From: Planctomycetia bacterium | GTDB taxonomy: Bacteria; Planctomycetota; Planctomycetia; Pirellulales; PALSA-1355 | Direction: 5' to 3' | Assembly (NCBI GenBank): GCA_041499515.1 | Contig: JBGQKM010000001.1 | Span: 1-60,825 of the forward strand | Length of the DNA stretch: 60,825 nt | Part shown: piece by piece, positions 35,976 to 41,803 of the stretch | How positions within the stretch are numbered: position 1 is the first letter of the stretch | Layout: each line of letters starts with the position of its first letter | The notes under the pieces: generated by a model | Database searches by the model: none | What the model was told of the DNA's origin: nothing | The model's input: only the letters and a program-made list of their open reading frames with translations | Program-made: the position numbers and the translations under genes

Positions 35976-36557
35976 CTACTCAATTCTTGAGCCAGGCGTG
36001 ACCAACTCGTTGAAGCGATCGACCGGCTCGCCGGCCGTCCAGGCCAGGCCGCGCAACAACAAGACGCGAAACAGCGGGTCGTCAAACGTCCAACTGTAGT
36101 GACCCAAGATCGAACAAAACACGCGGCCCCGGCCGGGTTCGAACGTCCACAGCAGCGGTCGCGGCTGGCCTTCTTCGACCTGCGTGGCCAGCACGTTGAC
36201 GCGCGCCGGGTCGCCGATCAGGTTCCAGTAGCTTTCGTCGACAAATCGGGCCGCGGTGAACCCGGCCGTGATCGGATGTTCGGCGTCGGCGCGAAACTGC
36301 AGATCGAGCGCGCCATGCCGGTAACGCGCCTGGCGGTCGTCCCAGGCCAGCCCGATGCGGCGCGCCAACTCCTCCGGGGCGCGCTGGCCGTTGACCGCAA
36401 AGTGCAAGTACACCAGCCCGCCGCCACGCTCCAAAAATGCGTCGAGCTCTTTGGCGCGCGCGGGGTTCCAGCCGGGATTGGCCGAGAAAAACGCCACGAC
36501 GTCGGCCGTCTTCCACTGTTCGGGCGTGGGCCAGGGATTGGCCGTCGCCACGCGCAC
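35976..36557 (-). CDS. ThuA-domain protein, apparently 5'-truncated (possible pseudogene remnant)
   Basis: ThuA-like motifs GGGLVYLHFAV, FVDESYWNL and GRGRVFCSILGH...LLLRGLAWTAG. The frame is closed by an in-frame TAG at 36573-36575, only 6 codons upstream of the GTG at 36557. The usual N-terminal beta-alpha segment of ThuA domains therefore seems to be missing. Confidence 0.55.
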   Translation of the reverse strand: MRVATANPWPTPEQWKTADVVAFFSANPGWNPARAKELDAFLERGGGLVYLHFAVNGQRAPEELARRIGLAWDDRQARYRHGALDLQFRADAEHPITAGFTAARFVDESYWNLIGDPARVNVLATQVEEGQPRPLLWTFEPGRGRVFCSILGHYSWTFDDPLFRVLLLRGLAWTAGEPVDRFNELVTPGSRIE

Positions 36558-37335
36558 GCGCGGCGCCAGTCCCTAGCGAGATGTCAGCAGTAGCGCCTGG
36601 TTGGCCGGTCAGCCGTTTTGCTCGACTGCCGACGTCGAGAACGGCCACAGCGAGATTGAGTTCGAGTCTGCGGCGGTGCCCCCCCCCAACGTGTGAAGCA
36701 CTCTCGACGCTATCGGTCTCAGCAGCCAACTCCATCTTCAACCTCAAGATGTGGGCATTGTAAGTGGCTTTGCGTTTACGGTCGGTGTGGGGTGGAGTCG
36801 TCGGCAATGCCTCATCATAGGTCGATGCAAATTCCGACGCCAAAGCGACCGACCGAATCGACTCGTATACTTGAATCACTTCATGCGCCATTTTCACGTC
36901 CAGCGGGGACTTTCGGGATCGAAACAGGCTCGATAGACCTGCTTCAATCGTCGTGCGGTTGGCTCCGCGAGCGAGCTGTTCCATCAAATGGAAGTCGCCG
37001 GGTTTGTTATTGTGCGCGAGAATTGGCGCTTTGGCGTATTTTAATGGCATTTCTGCCGGCGTCCACCTTGCCTCGCAGTGGCCGTGCCAGACTTTCACTG
37101 TGATTGGCGGCGTGAGATATACCAGCCGAGAACCGTTTTGCCCACCTTGAAGGAACGCCAACCTTGCACCCTCAAGTTCCTTGGCGTCGTTTGGACTCAA
37201 GAGGTTATTAGAGTGGCAGCCAGTACATCCAAAACTACCGAACTCGTAAAATGGATCATCCCGCCGTTCGTCCGGGCGTTCGCTCGCGCTGTATGGCCGG
37301 CGTAGGTGAACGATGATGCCCTTGGGTGCTGCCAT
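36082..37335 (-). CDS. Uncharacterised Cys/His-motif protein 'B'; only the first ~216 codons (37335 to ~36688) look genuine
   Basis: ATG lies 1 nt after the stop of the upstream gene. N-terminal GIIVHLRRP...DDPFYEFGSFGCTGCH, then EGARLAFLQGGQNGSRLVYL and WHGHCE. Lower-GC codon usage runs down to the G9 tract at 36679-36687. After the tract the translation becomes Arg/Gly/Ala-rich and runs out of frame through the ThuA fragment. Confidence 0.55.
   Translation of the reverse strand: MAAPKGIIVHLRRPYSASERPDERRDDPFYEFGSFGCTGCHSNNLLSPNDAKELEGARLAFLQGGQNGSRLVYLTPPITVKVWHGHCEARWTPAEMPLKYAKAPILAHNNKPGDFHLMEQLARGANRTTIEAGLSSLFRSRKSPLDVKMAHEVIQVYESIRSVALASEFASTYDEALPTTPPHTDRKRKATYNAHILRLKMELAAETDSVESASHVGGGHRRRLELNLAVAVLDVGSRAKRLTGQPGATADISLGTGAARARGDGQSLAHARTVEDGRRRGVFLGQSRLEPRARQRARRIFGAWRRAGVLALCGQRPARPGGVGAPHRAGLGRPPGALPAWRARSAVSRRRRTSDHGRVHRGPICRRKLLEPDRRPGARQRAGHAGRRRPAATAAVDVRTRPGPRVLFDLGSLQLDV
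36679..36687. repeat. Homopolymeric C9 (G9 on the coding strand) tract at the island / ThuA-fragment junction
   Basis: Read directly: ...cggcggtgCCCCCCCCCaacgtg... It encodes Gly217-219 of ORF B. Confidence 0.9.
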
Positions 37336-37336
37336 G

Positions 37337-38074
37337 TTAGTTGTTCCTCGGAATGAGTTGGACGCCTTGTTTGTGCAACCACCGCAAAAACTGGGCTGGC
37401 CTATTGATCGTCGGAGGCACCGCGCTGCGCTGAATAAAGCCGTCTTTCACCGACAAGCCGCCCCAATCGTCTAGGATGTCCTGTCGAACGCGATATGCGC
37501 GGCCGCGCCACTCCCCAATGGGGATACATCGGTCGAACCGACCCGATAAATCAGGCTTGGCTCGCACAACAATGTCGGTCTCACCTCGCCTCGACTTGCG
37601 GACGTGCGCGTTCTCATGCCACCGTTCGCGTGGAACATCGGCCACGCCTACCACGTCCTGTACAACGTACATGCCCAGTAGGGCATAGATTAGTTTGTGT
37701 TCGCAACAGTGAACCGGGTGCAAACCGCCGTAAAACACCAACAGGTCACCTTCACTCATGTTCGCCATCCCGGCCCCACGACGATCCCCATCATCGCCGT
37801 AGGTCAGAAAGTCGAAGTCTGGGTCCAAGTGCATGGGATACTGAAGCAAATCCTGCGGGAATCGCAGGTCGTCGCGCAGGTCGCAATCGTGTAGGCCACA
37901 AAAGCTTTGCAGGGCTGGGAGTATCTCGCCGTAACGGCGTTCAAGACCCTCGTGGAATGGGGTACCGAGATTCTCGGGTATCGGCACGTATACGAACCGC
38001 CGCTCAGCATCGACGGGGGCATTCCAGCCGCCATATGCTTGATCGACGCCGATTCTGACGAGTAATGCCTTCAT
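37337..38074 (-). CDS. Uncharacterised protein 'A' (first gene of the A-B pair)
   Basis: MKALLVRIGVDQAYGGWNAPVD...FVYVPIPE, DPDFDFLTYGDD, EGDLLVFYGGLHPVHCCEHKLIYALLGMYVV. Lower-GC codon usage. The ORF is open to 38170, but that start lies inside the 22-bp repeat, so ATG 38074 is preferred. Confidence 0.65.
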   Translation of the reverse strand: MKALLVRIGVDQAYGGWNAPVDAERRFVYVPIPENLGTPFHEGLERRYGEILPALQSFCGLHDCDLRDDLRFPQDLLQYPMHLDPDFDFLTYGDDGDRRGAGMANMSEGDLLVFYGGLHPVHCCEHKLIYALLGMYVVQDVVGVADVPRERWHENAHVRKSRRGETDIVVRAKPDLSGRFDRCIPIGEWRGRAYRVRQDILDDWGGLSVKDGFIQRSAVPPTINRPAQFLRWLHKQGVQLIPRNN

Positions 38075-38154
38075 GTTTTCGCGCTTTTGTGTTGGCTCTA
38101 TTGTCGCTGATACGAAACTGCGGTTAATCGTTATCGCGTAATCGGTTCGACCCA

Positions 38155-38176
38155 ACACGCATTGACGCATTGCATC
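38155..38176. repeat. 22-bp perfect direct repeat, copy 1 (ACACGCATTGACGCATTGCATC)
   Basis: An identical 22-mer recurs at 39168-39189. The two copies bracket the EcsC-family gene. Confidence 0.9.
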
Positions 38177-38187
38177 TCGGCGTCAAT
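38161..38187. promoter_or_regulatory. Inverted repeat ATTGACGC-N11-GCGTCAAT in the A / EcsC divergent intergenic region (candidate operator; contains a TTGACG -35-like hexamer)
   Basis: 8-bp arms at 38161-38168 and 38180-38187. The left arm lies inside direct-repeat copy 1. TTGACG at 38162-38167, with an AT-rich ATGATATTT about 17-19 nt downstream. Confidence 0.4.
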
Positions 38188-38237
38188 GATATTTGTCTCA
38201 GGCCGCGTCCGAATTGTCTGTCCCGTAAGCACTCGAT

Positions 38238-39101
38238 ATGCACGAGCCGCAAAAACCGCTGTCAGCCGAAGACTTGCGCTTTATAGATGAGGCTGCGCTC
38301 TACCTGGAAGAACCACGATTCCTTATGAAGGTCGCCAATCTCGTCGGCAAGCCCGCCGAGTGGGCTCTTACCGTGCTGCCAAAAAAGGCGCACGCTTTGG
38401 TGAGCGACGCGACTCAATCGGCGCTGAATGGTGCCTTGTACGTAGGCGTGCGCAGCTTGACGAGCCACAGGATACTGGCCGCTGGCCCGCGCGTTCACGT
38501 TACGCTGACCGCGATTGCCGGGGCCGTCGGCGGGCTGTTCGGCTTGTTCGGCGCGGCAGTGGAAATACCCCTCACGACCACGCTGATGATGCGCTCGATC
38601 GCCCAAATCGCCAAGGGAAACGGGTCCGACTTGGCCGATCCGGAAACGCTGATGCAATGCCTTTCAGTTTTCAGCTTCGGCGCGCCCAACCTTGAAGCTA
38701 TGGAATCGGCATTTCTTTCCGCGCGTTTTGCCTTGGCAGAAGAGGTGAAGCGCGCGGCGGCCTTTGTTGCCGGTCGCACCGCCGAGGGGATCGCTACGGC
38801 TGTGAAGAATGGTGCCGCCCCGGCGTTAGTGAACCTTCTCAATAAAATCGCCGCTCGATTTCAGATTCAGGTTACTGAGAAGCTGGCTGCCGAAGCGATA
38901 CCCATTGCCGGTGCCCTTGGGGGTGCGCTCATCAACGCCGCATTCACCGATCACTTTAATCGCGTGGCCGAATTTCATTTCGGTATCGTGCGGCTCGAAC
39001 GCCAGTCCGGTCAAGACGTTGTTCAGGCTGCATATCTCAAAGCCGTCGAGCGAGCGAAGCAGCGCCGACGCCCCAACGATCCGAACGCCGGCAGCACGTG
39101 A
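38238..39101 (+). CDS. EcsC family protein (orphan; no ecsA/ecsB-like ABC genes nearby)
   Basis: N-terminal LSAEDLRFIDEAALYLEEPRFLMKVANLVGKPAEWALTVLP, central Gly-rich hydrophobic segments (GAVGGLFGLFGAAVEIPLTTTLMMRSIAQIAKGNG) and a C-terminal IPIAGALGGALINAAFTDHF. The pattern is as I remember it for EcsC-family proteins. Not searched. Confidence 0.6.
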   Translation: MHEPQKPLSAEDLRFIDEAALYLEEPRFLMKVANLVGKPAEWALTVLPKKAHALVSDATQSALNGALYVGVRSLTSHRILAAGPRVHVTLTAIAGAVGGLFGLFGAAVEIPLTTTLMMRSIAQIAKGNGSDLADPETLMQCLSVFSFGAPNLEAMESAFLSARFALAEEVKRAAAFVAGRTAEGIATAVKNGAAPALVNLLNKIAARFQIQVTEKLAAEAIPIAGALGGALINAAFTDHFNRVAEFHFGIVRLERQSGQDVVQAAYLKAVERAKQRRRPNDPNAGST

Positions 39102-39677: not shown

Positions 39678-39741
39678 GATGCAGGGAGTCCGTCGTTCGA
39701 TTCGCCCCGGCGCTGACGGCCGTTTCGCTTGCGTAAATCTT

Positions 39742-39885
39742 CTCATACCCGACTCGCAAATTCCAGTTCCGTGCGATGAGGAAAGTACAAATCCGCACAG
39801 CTTCCCGTACACCGTTTCGCACAGCAACAACCTGCTGTCGGGCCTGAAAACGGCGCAAAACACGAGGGTACCATTTTCTCGATTT
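39742..39885 (+). repeat. ~144-nt intergenic repeat, copy 1 (5' of DUF1501 gene)
   Basis: Aligns without net gaps to 41561-41704, with about 21 mismatches (~85% identity) by hand count. Contains three CCGCACA-type sub-repeats spaced 12-14 nt apart and the hairpin ACAGC-N8-GCTGT. Confidence 0.85.
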
Positions 39886-40094: not shown

Positions 40095-41483
40095 TTGGTG
40101 CTTACGATTTTCGGAAACCGACAACGACCCTTCTGCGATGGGATTTCGCGCCGCAGCTTTTTGCGGATCGGTTCGCTCGGGCTGGGCGGGCTGTCCATGG
40201 CCCGGTTGCTGCGCGCCGAGGCGCAGGCGGGGCGCGGGGTGACGAACCGTTCGGTCATCATTGTTTATCTGCCGGGCGGGCCCACGCAGCACGAAACGTT
40301 CGATCCCAAGCCGGGCGCCCCGCTCGAAGTTCGTGGGTCGTTCAGGCCGGCCAGCACCAGCATCCCCGGCGTTCAGTTTTGCGAAACACTCCCCAAGCTG
40401 TCTCGGATTGCGGACAAGTATTCGATCGTGCGGACGCTGACGGGGATGAAGAACCGCCACGAATCGTTCCAGTGTTATACGGGGCGTCCGGGGGGCAAAA
40501 GCGAAGACAACGAACCGGCCGGCGGCTGGCCGGGGTTTGGGTCGATGGTCTCCAGCGTGCTTCCGCCGGCTGCCGACGGCATGATTCCCTATGTCGATGC
40601 CTCGCCAAAAATGCCGTATGGCCCCTACAACAACCGCGGCCTGCACGACGGAAGCGCCAAGGAGTCGTGGCCCGGGTTTACCGGCCCTCGGCACATCCCG
40701 TTCGCGCTGGAAGGGGAAGTGAAAGCCGATTTGGTGCTCAATGGCATCGATCGTTCGATGCTTGCCGATCGACGCGCGCTGCTCTCGGCGCTTGGGCGTT
40801 ATCAGGATCGATTCAACGTGGATGGCCTGGACAAGTTCCAGCAACAAGCATTCGAGTTGCTTACGTCGAGTCGCCTGGCCACGGCGTTGGATCTGGAAAA
40901 GGAGGATCCCAAAGTTCGAGCGCGCTATGGCGAAAGCCAGGAGACCCACCCGAGTTATGGCGGGGCTCCGCAGAATCCCCAGAATCTCTTGTTGGCTCGT
41001 CGAATCGTCGAGGCCGGTGTGCGTTGCGTCAGCGTCGCCTTTGGCGCTTGGGATTGGCACGGCACCCAACGCGACGGGAGCCTTGAGTATCACTCGAAAA
41101 AATATCTGCCGGTTTTCGACCATGCCCTGTCGGTGTTCCTGAGCGATCTGGCCGAGCGGGGGCTACTCGAAACCGTTTCGGTCGTCGTATGGGGAGAGTT
41201 TGGACGTACGCCTCGAATCAACACGCAGGCCGGCCGCGACCACTGGCCGGGCACGCAATCCGTTTTGCTGGCGGGGGGCGGAATTCAGGGGGGGCGAATC
41301 ATCGGCAAGACCGACAGCCTGGGAGGCGTGCCCGTCGAGCGCCCGGTGCATGTCCAGGAAGTTTTTGCCTCGCTCTACCGCAACCTGGGAATCGACGTGA
41401 ACACCGTCACCGTCCGCGATCTGAACGGCCGTCCGAATTTTCTGGTCGACGAGAATCGCCAGCCGATCGACGAGTTGTATTAG
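40095..41483 (+). CDS. DUF1501 domain protein (second copy; Tat-type signal)
   Basis: SRRSFLRIGSLGLGG, VYLPGGPTQHETFDPKP, GRDHWPG. GAGGGAGA Shine-Dalgarno-like sequence at ~40083-40090. Start is TTG 40095 or GTG 40098. Confidence 0.85.
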   Translation: MVLTIFGNRQRPFCDGISRRSFLRIGSLGLGGLSMARLLRAEAQAGRGVTNRSVIIVYLPGGPTQHETFDPKPGAPLEVRGSFRPASTSIPGVQFCETLPKLSRIADKYSIVRTLTGMKNRHESFQCYTGRPGGKSEDNEPAGGWPGFGSMVSSVLPPAADGMIPYVDASPKMPYGPYNNRGLHDGSAKESWPGFTGPRHIPFALEGEVKADLVLNGIDRSMLADRRALLSALGRYQDRFNVDGLDKFQQQAFELLTSSRLATALDLEKEDPKVRARYGESQETHPSYGGAPQNPQNLLLARRIVEAGVRCVSVAFGAWDWHGTQRDGSLEYHSKKYLPVFDHALSVFLSDLAERGLLETVSVVVWGEFGRTPRINTQAGRDHWPGTQSVLLAGGGIQGGRIIGKTDSLGGVPVERPVHVQEVFASLYRNLGIDVNTVTVRDLNGRPNFLVDENRQPIDELY

Positions 41484-41560
41484 CCCAAGACGCCTGAAAT
41501 CGGTCGTTCGATTCGCTGGAACGGGTGATGGCCGTTGGGGCCGCGACAATCTTTTCGTTT

Positions 41561-41704
41561 CTCATGCCCGGCTCGCAAATTCCAGTTCCGGACGATGGCG
41601 GAAAGACAAATCCGCACAGCTTCCCGCACATCCTTCCGCACAGCGACAACCTGCTGTCGGGCCTGAAAACGGCCCATAACCCAAGGGCACGATTTCCTCG
41701 ATTT
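41561..41704 (+). repeat. ~144-nt intergenic repeat, copy 2 (5' of radical SAM gene)
   Basis: See copy 1. Same orientation. Begins 78 nt after the DUF1501 stop and ends ~100 nt before ATG 41804. Confidence 0.85.
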
Positions 41705-41803
41705 TTCGGTGTGCGGTGCCCGAATTGAGGATAACAGGTATCCAGGTTTGCGCGATCGGATTGGTTTGCCGCGCGGTTGTCCATTCGTGAGAGAGCAACG
41801 CAC

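Follow-up and report, generated by a model that had tools for sequence, protein, structure and literature searches.

Which function could be served by two adjacent genes that are low in G+C, lie a single nucleotide apart and resemble nothing in the housekeeping repertoire? This question is raised by a locus on the minus strand of a 60,825-nucleotide stretch of contig JBGQKM010000001.1 (assembly GCA_041499515.1) from a Planctomycetia bacterium of the order Pirellulales; we refer to this whole stretch as the window, and to the two genes, in their order of transcription, as A and B. An original prediction, made by reading the sequence without database searches, had taken the pair for an undescribed two-component system, acquired horizontally and directed at nucleic acids or nucleotides. 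We find that the locus is a conserved, co-inherited and sometimes fused two-protein module, composed of a member of the Pfam family Nmad3 (A) and of a protein (B) that holds the slot beside Nmad3 which, in other genomes, is held by Nmad2 or by a third family, named C here.

Two adjacent genes and their families

The stop codon of A (TAA, 37339-37337) and the start codon of B (ATG, 37335-37333) are separated only by the C at 37336, as had been read originally. A Shine-Dalgarno (SD)-like GAGGAA is located at 37349-37344, inside the 3' end of A and 8 nt before the B start. Because of this TAA-C-ATG junction, preceded at such a distance by GAGGAA, the tight A-B pair can be considered real, and the two genes are probably translationally coupled. 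Dozens of related loci have the same type of junction, with either one nucleotide between stop and ATG (stop-N-ATG) or an overlap of 4 nt.

The resemblance of A to Nmad3, first proposed from the pattern of its N-terminus, proved correct. A scores 86.9 bits against PF18754, well over the gathering threshold of 27 (E = 2.2e-24), with residues 2-187 aligned to profile positions 1-193 of 247 and the C-terminal ~55 residues left without a profile match. Canonical Nmad3 members score ~225-233 bits and, because A matches only positions 1-193 of the profile, we consider that it represents a divergent Nmad3 subfamily. PF18754 is present in 120 of the 120 listed homologs of A. These homologs all begin with MKALLVRIGVD and have a length of 245 aa, with identities of 72-87% inside Planctomycetia and of 44-66% between phyla. 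The number of invariant columns reaches 39 in a set of 28 cross-phylum sequences and 46 in a set of 61, and the residues concerned include R7, D11, W17, N18, H82, D84, D86, Y92, D110, N155, H157, R159, S177, G178, R190, and W204, R179 being nearly invariant. A by-eye comparison with canonical Nmad3 proteins (P0276 and the protein of contig L090; 225-227 bits) suggests R7, G9, D11, G15-G16, P20, a "PIP" motif, H82-x-D84-P, G109-D110, F114, and H157 as common positions. The string HPVHCCEH, to which the original prediction had drawn attention in A, falls in a variable stretch and was rejected as a functional motif.

For B, no match was obtained in Pfam, NCBIfam, PADLOC or PHROGs and, when 53 members of its family were compared with Pfam at E <= 10, the number of relevant models matched was zero. 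Neither A nor B matched a housekeeping family in the library searches, in agreement with what had been expected from their sequences, and the profiles of A, B, and Nmad2, when run against PDB sequences, returned nothing meaningful. B is a member of a real family, made of ~200 residues followed by a tail, that carries no annotation in the libraries searched: a word-indexed search recovered 315 homolog clusters and, when 1.84 billion representatives were searched exhaustively with a profile, 355 clusters at 50% identity were obtained; homologs have lengths of 200-250 aa. Positions R12, R25, D27, G36, T38, C40, F61, Q63, and W91 are invariant and H41 is nearly so; the T-x-C-H motif formed by T38, C40, and H41 is found in 196 of the 199 members that possess a full core. 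This motif is what survives of the metal site that had been thought plausible from a CxxCH and an HxHC motif. Indeed, C37 is a cysteine in 72% of members and is replaced by Leu, Ile, or Val in ~25%, H84 and H86 are variable, and C87 remains under the 90% conservation cut-off, so that a metal site assembled from the two motifs was rejected.

The tail of B is ~27 residues long and contains, in the 199 full-core proteins, 18% Arg, 11% Ser, and 7.3% Cys. At least one cysteine is found in the tail of 92% of these members, two or more in 65%, and 72% have one within the last five residues; some homologs, for example P0003 and P0120, are naturally devoid of a tail. Cysteine-bearing C-terminal tails also end most of the Nmad2 partners of Nmad3 and nine of nine C proteins, which suggests, as far as sequence can tell, that the tail may play a common role in the three families. 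A separate case is the 596-aa metagenome protein P0294, in which a B-family domain that lacks both cysteines of the motif (GSFGMTRSH) as well as the Cys tail is fused to a ~390-aa N-terminal region without Pfam match; this protein is possibly an inactivated or repurposed B derivative.

Two relationships that had been proposed for B did not withstand profile comparisons. The first was a resemblance to Nmad2 (PF18753). Alignments of B with Nmad2 by hhalign reach a probability of only 0.4-2.2% and reciprocal searches with hidden Markov models (HMM; --max option) a best E-value of ~0.3, so that homology is undetectable with these tools; the prediction nevertheless came close, as B holds beside Nmad3 the slot of Nmad2 in other genomes. 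The second was a common architecture of A and B. Here hhalign gives a probability of 0.2% and homology between A and B was rejected, yet the best, although weak, structural matches of the models of both proteins are PUA-like, as discussed below. For comparison, the hhalign probability for Nmad3 against Nmad2 is 10%, in alignments free of the A part of a fused open reading frame (ORF; locus L074).

Interchangeable partners of Nmad3

The distribution of the module was examined in one genome per GTDB species (185,579 species), and 80 of the loci found were analyzed. Relatives of A occur in 174 of these species (~0.1%). The 80 loci analyzed are from Planctomycetota (Planctomycetia and Phycisphaerae), Acidobacteriota, Myxococcota, several proteobacterial classes, Thermodesulfobacteriota, Nitrospirota, Chloroflexota, Verrucomicrobiota, WOR-3, and Poribacteria. 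Some genomes contain multiple copies of A (e.g., L037/L038 and L064/L074). A census of partners at 82 non-redundant A loci, which come from more than 10 phyla, found a recognized one at 68 of them. B lies immediately downstream of A at 38 loci and is fused with it in one ORF at 9; the neighbor is a Pfam Nmad2 protein (57-188 bits) at 14 loci, one of which encodes an Nmad2-A fusion, and a C protein at 7, C and Nmad2 being both present at one locus (L068). At the 14 loci where no partner was recognized, several A genes are at contig ends or disrupted by insertion sequences (IS). Three more A-B fusions were found among metagenome proteins (P0251, P0276, and P0338), and the order in the fusions is A then B. 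Moreover, pairwise identities between A proteins correlate with those between the associated B proteins (r = 0.65), and the type of partner is largely clade-specific on the A tree.

These data bear out the two-component module that had been predicted, which is patchily distributed across more than 10 phyla. The partner census leads us to regard Nmad3 as a protein that obligately has a partner, for which there are three alternatives, B, Nmad2, and C, which substitute for one another beside it. B and Nmad2 in particular are similar in size (~200-aa core) and layout: both have a conserved cysteine after an N-terminal strand and a Gly-rich loop, and both have Cys tails, a likeness that is to be read as an analogy and not as proof of homology. 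B is also found with canonical Nmad3 proteins (227-233 bits) at L090 and L091 and with a divergent one at L095. L090 (4836-6222) and L091 (7262-8591) are phage-like IMG/VR viral contigs on which this canonical Nmad3 and B form a pair; one of the two pairs adjoins a prohead-protease/capsid fusion gene and the other is near HNH, DUF6362, and ParB-DNA-methylase genes. A conserved third gene was searched for by clustering the neighboring ORFs of the 82 loci and was rejected: beyond the partners, no family is present at more than nine loci, and the one that reaches this number is a generic Ser/Thr kinase.

The C proteins have ~165 aa, start with MRTLIYKRTHxGDPDxxGxFGxxDCMGxVRxW... and end with ...KGCSR or ...KGCSS. 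They were found at L047, L052, L056, L057, L059, L061 (convergent with A), L068, L080, and L085 (7471-8022), and no Pfam, PADLOC, or PHROG match was obtained for the family. C resembles the N-terminal motifs of Nmad2 by eye, with a weak hhalign probability of 9%. At L085, which is the megaplasmid pHG1 of Cupriavidus necator H16, C precedes a 31%-identical Nmad3 at a place where the PLSDB table lists no gene. This strain, with its C-Nmad3 pair, and Anaeromyxobacter sp. PSR-1, with an Nmad3-Nmad2 pair, are cultured carriers of such modules.

How much of this is new has to be stated with care. The Nmad families, which were defined by comparative genomics, trace back to Iyer, Zhang, Burroughs, and Aravind, in NAR 2013. 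Another article (PMC11846954) cites this study for the Nmad names. In the literature searched, Nmad3/PF18754 is not mentioned, and only Nmad2 (in the DefensePredictor work) and Nmad5 (in an anti-Tmn context) appear. Nmad3 and Nmad2 are thus already described Pfam families without biochemistry, and the label "undescribed system" cannot be extended to them, whereas it stands for B and for the pairing of Nmad3 with B, which are in no library searched. Relative to these libraries and this literature, the new elements are the B and C families, their pairings and fusions, the common Cys tail, and the tentative PUA-like fold assignment. The Nmad3-Nmad2 pairs are the closest known relatives in organization: Nmad3 is followed by, or coupled to, a ~200-aa partner, with occasional fusion, and this partner, like B, has an N-terminal strand, a conserved cysteine after a Gly-rich loop and often a Cys C-terminal tail. 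They differ from A-B in that B fails every Nmad2 sequence test and is not in Pfam, and in that A is of a divergent subfamily. The only experimentally validated system found in the literature searched that contains any relative of Nmad2 or Nmad3 is the five-gene defense system DS-4 "NTTI" of Escherichia coli, identified with DefensePredictor, which comprises TS-like, adenylate-kinase-like, 5-hmdU-kinase-like, and TIR genes together with an Nmad2 gene (WP_047174762.1; PMC13092281). DS-4 is unlike A-B, however, as it contains neither Nmad3 nor B, as its Nmad2 has no Cys tail, and as none of its accessory genes accompanies A-B.

The module in the planctomycete genome

The features of the locus are listed in table 1.

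Table 1. Coordinates of the features of the A-B locus, in window numbering.
Feature	Position	Strand	Description	Basis
Gene A	37337..38074	minus	Nmad3-family protein, 245 aa; stop TAA at 37339-37337	ORF, Pfam, homologs, model
Coupling junction	37333..37349	minus	SD-like GAGGAA, TAA stop, single C, ATG of B	direct sequence reading
Gene B, folded core	36688..37335	minus	residues 1-216; family without annotation	alignments, AlphaFold2 model
Poly-G tract	36679..36687	minus	G9 on the coding strand, at the core/tail boundary of B; frameshifts B
B tail coding sequence	36584..36678	minus	Arg/Ser-rich, two Cys, APPQTRTQSRCGRSRRRQSSKTADRPTRRYC followed by the stop; out of frame in the window	frame translations
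Read-through extension of the B ORF	36082..36583	minus	extends B to 417 aa; overlaps the ThuA-like ORF 35976-36557
Divergent intergenic region between A and the EcsC-family gene	38075..38237		163 bp; presumed promoter region of the A-B operon	ORF map

The low G+C content noted in the original prediction was confirmed. It amounts to 0.546-0.572 for the pair against 0.62 for the 60.8-kb window, within whose lowest-G+C 740-bp segments the pair falls. At third codon positions (GC3), values are 0.646 for A and 0.597 for B, as compared with 0.73-0.83 for the neighboring ThuA-like, DUF1571, DUF1501, and radical-SAM genes. The EcsC-family gene that is divergent from A (38238-39101, plus strand) is also low in GC3 (0.667) and, owing to this property in common, may have come with the A-B cassette; elsewhere, it is linked to A-B only in a sister contig, L001. 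Given the patchy presence of the module in more than 10 phyla, its unrelated neighborhoods, and its low GC3 here, we regard it as an accessory, horizontally moving unit. Horizontal acquisition, as originally put forward, is therefore plausible, all the more since some loci are at IS-flanked sites, in type I restriction-modification (R-M) islands, or on tailed-phage contigs.

The 3' end of B required revision. The ORF does not end near 36613, as first proposed: as it stands, it encodes 417 aa and continues as far as 36082, into the ThuA-like ORF, which has a coding-type GC3 of 0.83. Both the length and the overlap result from the frame being shifted by the G9 tract at 36679-36687, the longest homopolymer of the window. 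In L001 (GCA_041481665.1), a 6.8-kb contig 99.4% identical to the window, the tract is G7, and this difference is the only indel. With G7, B is a protein of 249 aa (P0001) that ends with APPQTRTQSRCGRSRRRQSSKTADRPTRRYC, and its stop would be at 36586-36584; the tail is in frame if the tract is either G7 or G10. The tail of P0001 is found again in P0002 (88% identical), other homologs have a tail of the same kind, and an extension beyond the tail comparable to that of the 417-aa ORF is present in no B homolog. The read-through sequence 36082-36583 is probably not native coding sequence, and the practical result for annotation is a B model of 249 aa with a frameshift, not of 417 aa.

The length of the tract thus varies among sequences that are more than 99% identical and, in doing so, toggles the frame of the B tail, which either slipped-strand variation or an error in the homopolymer could explain. 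In L086, an independent Logan contig of 2.7 kb, there are three mismatches and no gaps relative to the window, and the tract is G9 as well; this second occurrence implies that the frameshift may be a real allele and not an error of assembly. A comparable tract is absent from 45 other B genes, whose own poly-G tracts occur at background frequency. It is therefore lineage-specific, and a role of poly-G as a family-wide device for phase variation was rejected.

With its B tail out of frame, the module in this genome may be impaired or switched off. A decay of the module through loss of the tail by a +2 slip of the tract, or else a mere homopolymer assembly error that mimics it, is to our mind a serious possibility, although the less likely course. 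That G9 against G7 is the sole indel in 6.8 kb and recurs in L086 speaks for decay, as do the retention of the tail in most of the family, the truncation of the adjacent ThuA-like ORF described below and the occurrence of split A or B genes elsewhere. The A and B cores, on the other hand, are intact between the strains (one synonymous difference in A and one substitution in B), a few homologs do naturally without the tail, and calls of homopolymer length are error-prone. The split genes, in which A or B is in two or three ORF pieces, are those of L012, L013, L024, L030, L041, L062, and L068, several of which are from long-read assemblies; they may be sequencing errors or pseudogenes.

The surroundings of the pair were also inspected. 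The ThuA-like ORF directly downstream of the low-G+C cassette (35976-36557, minus strand, 193 aa) aligns with PF06283 over positions 45-209 only, starts directly after an in-frame stop, and appears, from its sequence, to be 5'-truncated. An insertion scar marked by a displaced N-terminal ThuA piece was considered and rejected, as none was detected beyond the cassette. Promoter and terminator scans were uninformative, with a single weak sigma-70-like match in the 163-bp region between A and the EcsC gene, on the plus strand, and an Rfam scan of the whole window returned only two tRNAs, far from A-B. Further away, a ~150-nt non-coding element is present in two copies (39740-39885 and 41559-41704), ~85% identical and in the same orientation, each upstream of a plus-strand gene (DUF1501 at 40095 and radical-SAM/SPASM at 41777, respectively). 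It has no Rfam match and may represent either a leader or regulatory element common to the two genes or a small repeat.

Folds, genomic context, and possible function

What, then, might the two proteins do together? AlphaFold2 produced confident models for A (predicted local distance difference test [pLDDT] 94.5, predicted TM-score [pTM] 0.92) and for B (pLDDT 91.2, pTM 0.82), in the latter case for residues 1-210, the tail being at ~60. Foldseek found no close solved relative of either. The best match of A is the N-terminal domain of McrB on m5C DNA (6p0g; E = 0.014, probability 0.82, TMt 0.43), followed by the EVE protein THYN1, the ASCH proteins 3iuw, TRIP4, and EOLA1, and Lon-N, with E-values of 0.04-1 for EVE and ASCH. 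Matches of B in the PDB are weak (best E = 0.29), with EVE/YTH proteins at ranks 1, 2, 4, and 5 as well as lower, and MspJI also among them; in the viral library BFVD, an ASCH protein is matched with E = 0.04. On these models, A and B look like elaborated PUA-like beta-barrels of the ASCH/EVE/YTH type, which we take as a lead rather than as demonstrated membership.

Because of their joint inheritance and their occasional fusion into one polypeptide, A and B almost certainly act as a single A:B complex. We favor the view that this complex is a heteromeric enzyme that targets bases of nucleic acids or nucleotides, with a confidence that is evenly poised between acceptance and doubt. The nucleic-acid or nucleotide target, and the role in modification or defense, are suggested by the name of the family, the weak PUA-like matches, and the genomic context. 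Judging from conservation, the dense set of invariant polar residues in A (R7, D11, W17-N18, H82-x-D84-x-D86, Y92, D110, N155-x-H157-x-R159, S177-G-R179, and R190) would fit an enzyme better than a passive reader and, together with the Cys40-His41 pair of B, may point to catalysis on a flipped base or nucleoside. The PUA-like pockets of A and B would accept a flipped-out, often modified, base or nucleoside. The complex might bind DNA, or less likely RNA, with the help of the basic tail of B; the target base would be seated in a PUA-like pocket and then modified or processed by means of thiol chemistry from B, which would supply the invariant Cys40-His41 and a disordered basic tail with two terminal cysteines, these being either a dithiol with a resolving or regenerating function or ligands of a metal. 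This specific thiol chemistry is much less likely than a base-targeting enzyme as such. The biological role would probably lie in conflicts between phages, mobile elements, and hosts. A precedent for a PUA-like barrel that is itself catalytic on a modified pyrimidine is YqfB, an ASCH protein of 103 aa and thus related to a fold group matched by A, which acts as a single-chain N4-acylcytosine amidohydrolase (PMC6972931). YqfB differs, however, in being a single, unpaired chain, and has no detected sequence similarity to A or B.

The genomic context is compatible with a role in conflict at some loci only. Type I R-M genes are found within 6-8 kb at ~10 loci, IS3 transposases at 6 and PIN toxins at 4; a ParB-methylase and a primase-polymerase are beside the module at 3 loci, and phage or ParB-methylase contexts occur at at least 5. 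One module is in an ORFan-rich island with a phage DUF5131/GP88 gene, the C-Nmad3 pair of pHG1 is flanked by ParDE and a restriction endonuclease, and a locus with B only is surrounded by ScoMcrA_N, Mrr, and integrase genes. Overall, proximity to R-M, toxin-antitoxin (TA), or mobile elements concerns a minority of loci. Signs of a defense-island or prophage setting, which the original prediction had proposed to look for, are thus seen in this minority; they are absent from the window, where no defense genes are found within 5 kb of A-B, and from several other planctomycete loci. Neither A nor B occurs in the INPHARED phage records, and B is also missing from the PLSDB plasmids, among which only distant Nmad3 homologs were found, on Cupriavidus plasmids.

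Several observations weigh against a base-targeting enzyme engaged in such conflicts. The neighbors of the pair in the window are a GT41-TPR gene, DUF1571, the truncated ThuA, EcsC, DUF1501, and a radical-SAM-SPASM gene, several other planctomycete loci have equally ordinary neighbors, and the subfamily found in the window is almost absent from phage collections. PADLOC (PADLOC-DB 2.0) gave no match for A, B, the Nmad2 partners, C, the P0276 fusion, or the pHG1 Nmad3, and the very high conservation of A is unusual for defense proteins. As for the enzyme itself, the fold matches are weak (TM-scores of 0.2-0.48 and no Foldseek E-value below 0.01), neither A nor B has a recognizable cofactor, nucleotide-binding, or nuclease motif, B shows no detectable homology to Nmad2, C, or A, and the conserved tail of B is not translatable in the window. 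Finally, neither biochemical nor genetic work on Nmad3 or B turned up in the literature searched.

In the main alternative, A and B would read modified bases without catalysis, as standalone PUA-like sensors that modulate or direct other machinery in trans, such as type I R-M or Mrr/McrA-type enzymes. The best structural matches of the two proteins are indeed reader domains (McrB-N/YTH, EVE, and ASCH; e.g., 6p0g and, for EVE/THYN1, 5j3e), neither protein has an effector or cofactor domain, and an association of standalone EVE plus ASCH proteins with type I R-M has been described (Bell et al. 2020, PMC7641849), in keeping with the type I R-M genes that recur near the module and with the B-only locus among ScoMcrA_N and Mrr genes. 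Yet most loci, that of the window included, have no R-M genes nearby, and the ~40 invariant, mostly charged or polar, positions of A and the Cys-His of B exceed what is usual in aromatic-cage readers. Obligate pairing and fusions argue, in addition, for a composite active unit. We therefore hold a pair of pure readers to be improbable, but worth keeping in view. Compared with the known PUA-like reader domains, A and B show no sequence similarity to Pfam EVE, YTH, or ASCH, are ~100 residues larger, have no attached nuclease or ATPase, and contain many more invariant polar residues.

A purely cellular function, without any role in conflict, is still more doubtful. A-B would in that case be an enzyme of RNA modification, RNA demodification, or salvage of modified nucleosides, like the ac4C ASCH amidohydrolases. 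PUA and ASCH domains are typically tied to RNA modification, YqfB-type ASCH proteins act on free modified nucleosides (PMC6972931), the strong conservation of A suggests an invariant substrate, and ordinary neighbors surround the module at many planctomycete loci. Such a function agrees poorly, however, with the presence of A in so few species, with multiple copies in some genomes, with the vicinity of transposases, R-M, and phage capsid genes at some loci, with the low GC3 here, and with a partner swapped among three families; at the 82 loci, no synteny with translation or RNA genes is conserved. Lastly, a TA or abortive-infection module, in which one protein would neutralize the other, might account for a small, coupled, mobile, and patchy two-gene cassette with a "mix and match" partner and with PIN and ParDE loci nearby in some genomes, but is very unlikely, as proteins of 245 and 249 aa are large for TA components, as the conservation of A far exceeds that of typical toxins or antitoxins, as fusion of A with B at nine loci and in three metagenome proteins is at odds with a type II TA pair, and as no PADLOC, TA-model, or TA-family match was found.

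The enzyme that we favor would, in its most developed form, belong to a widespread two-subunit class in which Nmad3 associates with an interchangeable B, Nmad2, or C, the two chains forming two PUA-like barrels and the partner contributing a Cys-His nucleophile and a "swinging" two-Cys tail. This class would carry out an undescribed DNA nucleobase modification, demodification, or excision, used by phages and mobile elements or by their hosts in restriction and anti-restriction conflicts. So detailed a proposal is speculative and, taken as a whole, more probably wrong than right by a wide measure. Nmad3 and Nmad2 have so far been names without biochemistry, and the question of Nmad function is now directly testable, as the natural A-B fusions are expressible as single chains and as the residues of interest can be named: C40, H41, and the tail cysteines in B, and H82, D84, D86, H157, and R159 in A. 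If the complex were only a pair of readers, it would widen the repertoire of PUA-like sensors; if A:B modifies or processes a DNA base, it would represent a new type of enzyme in the epigenetic warfare between phages and their hosts, and possibly a new tool.

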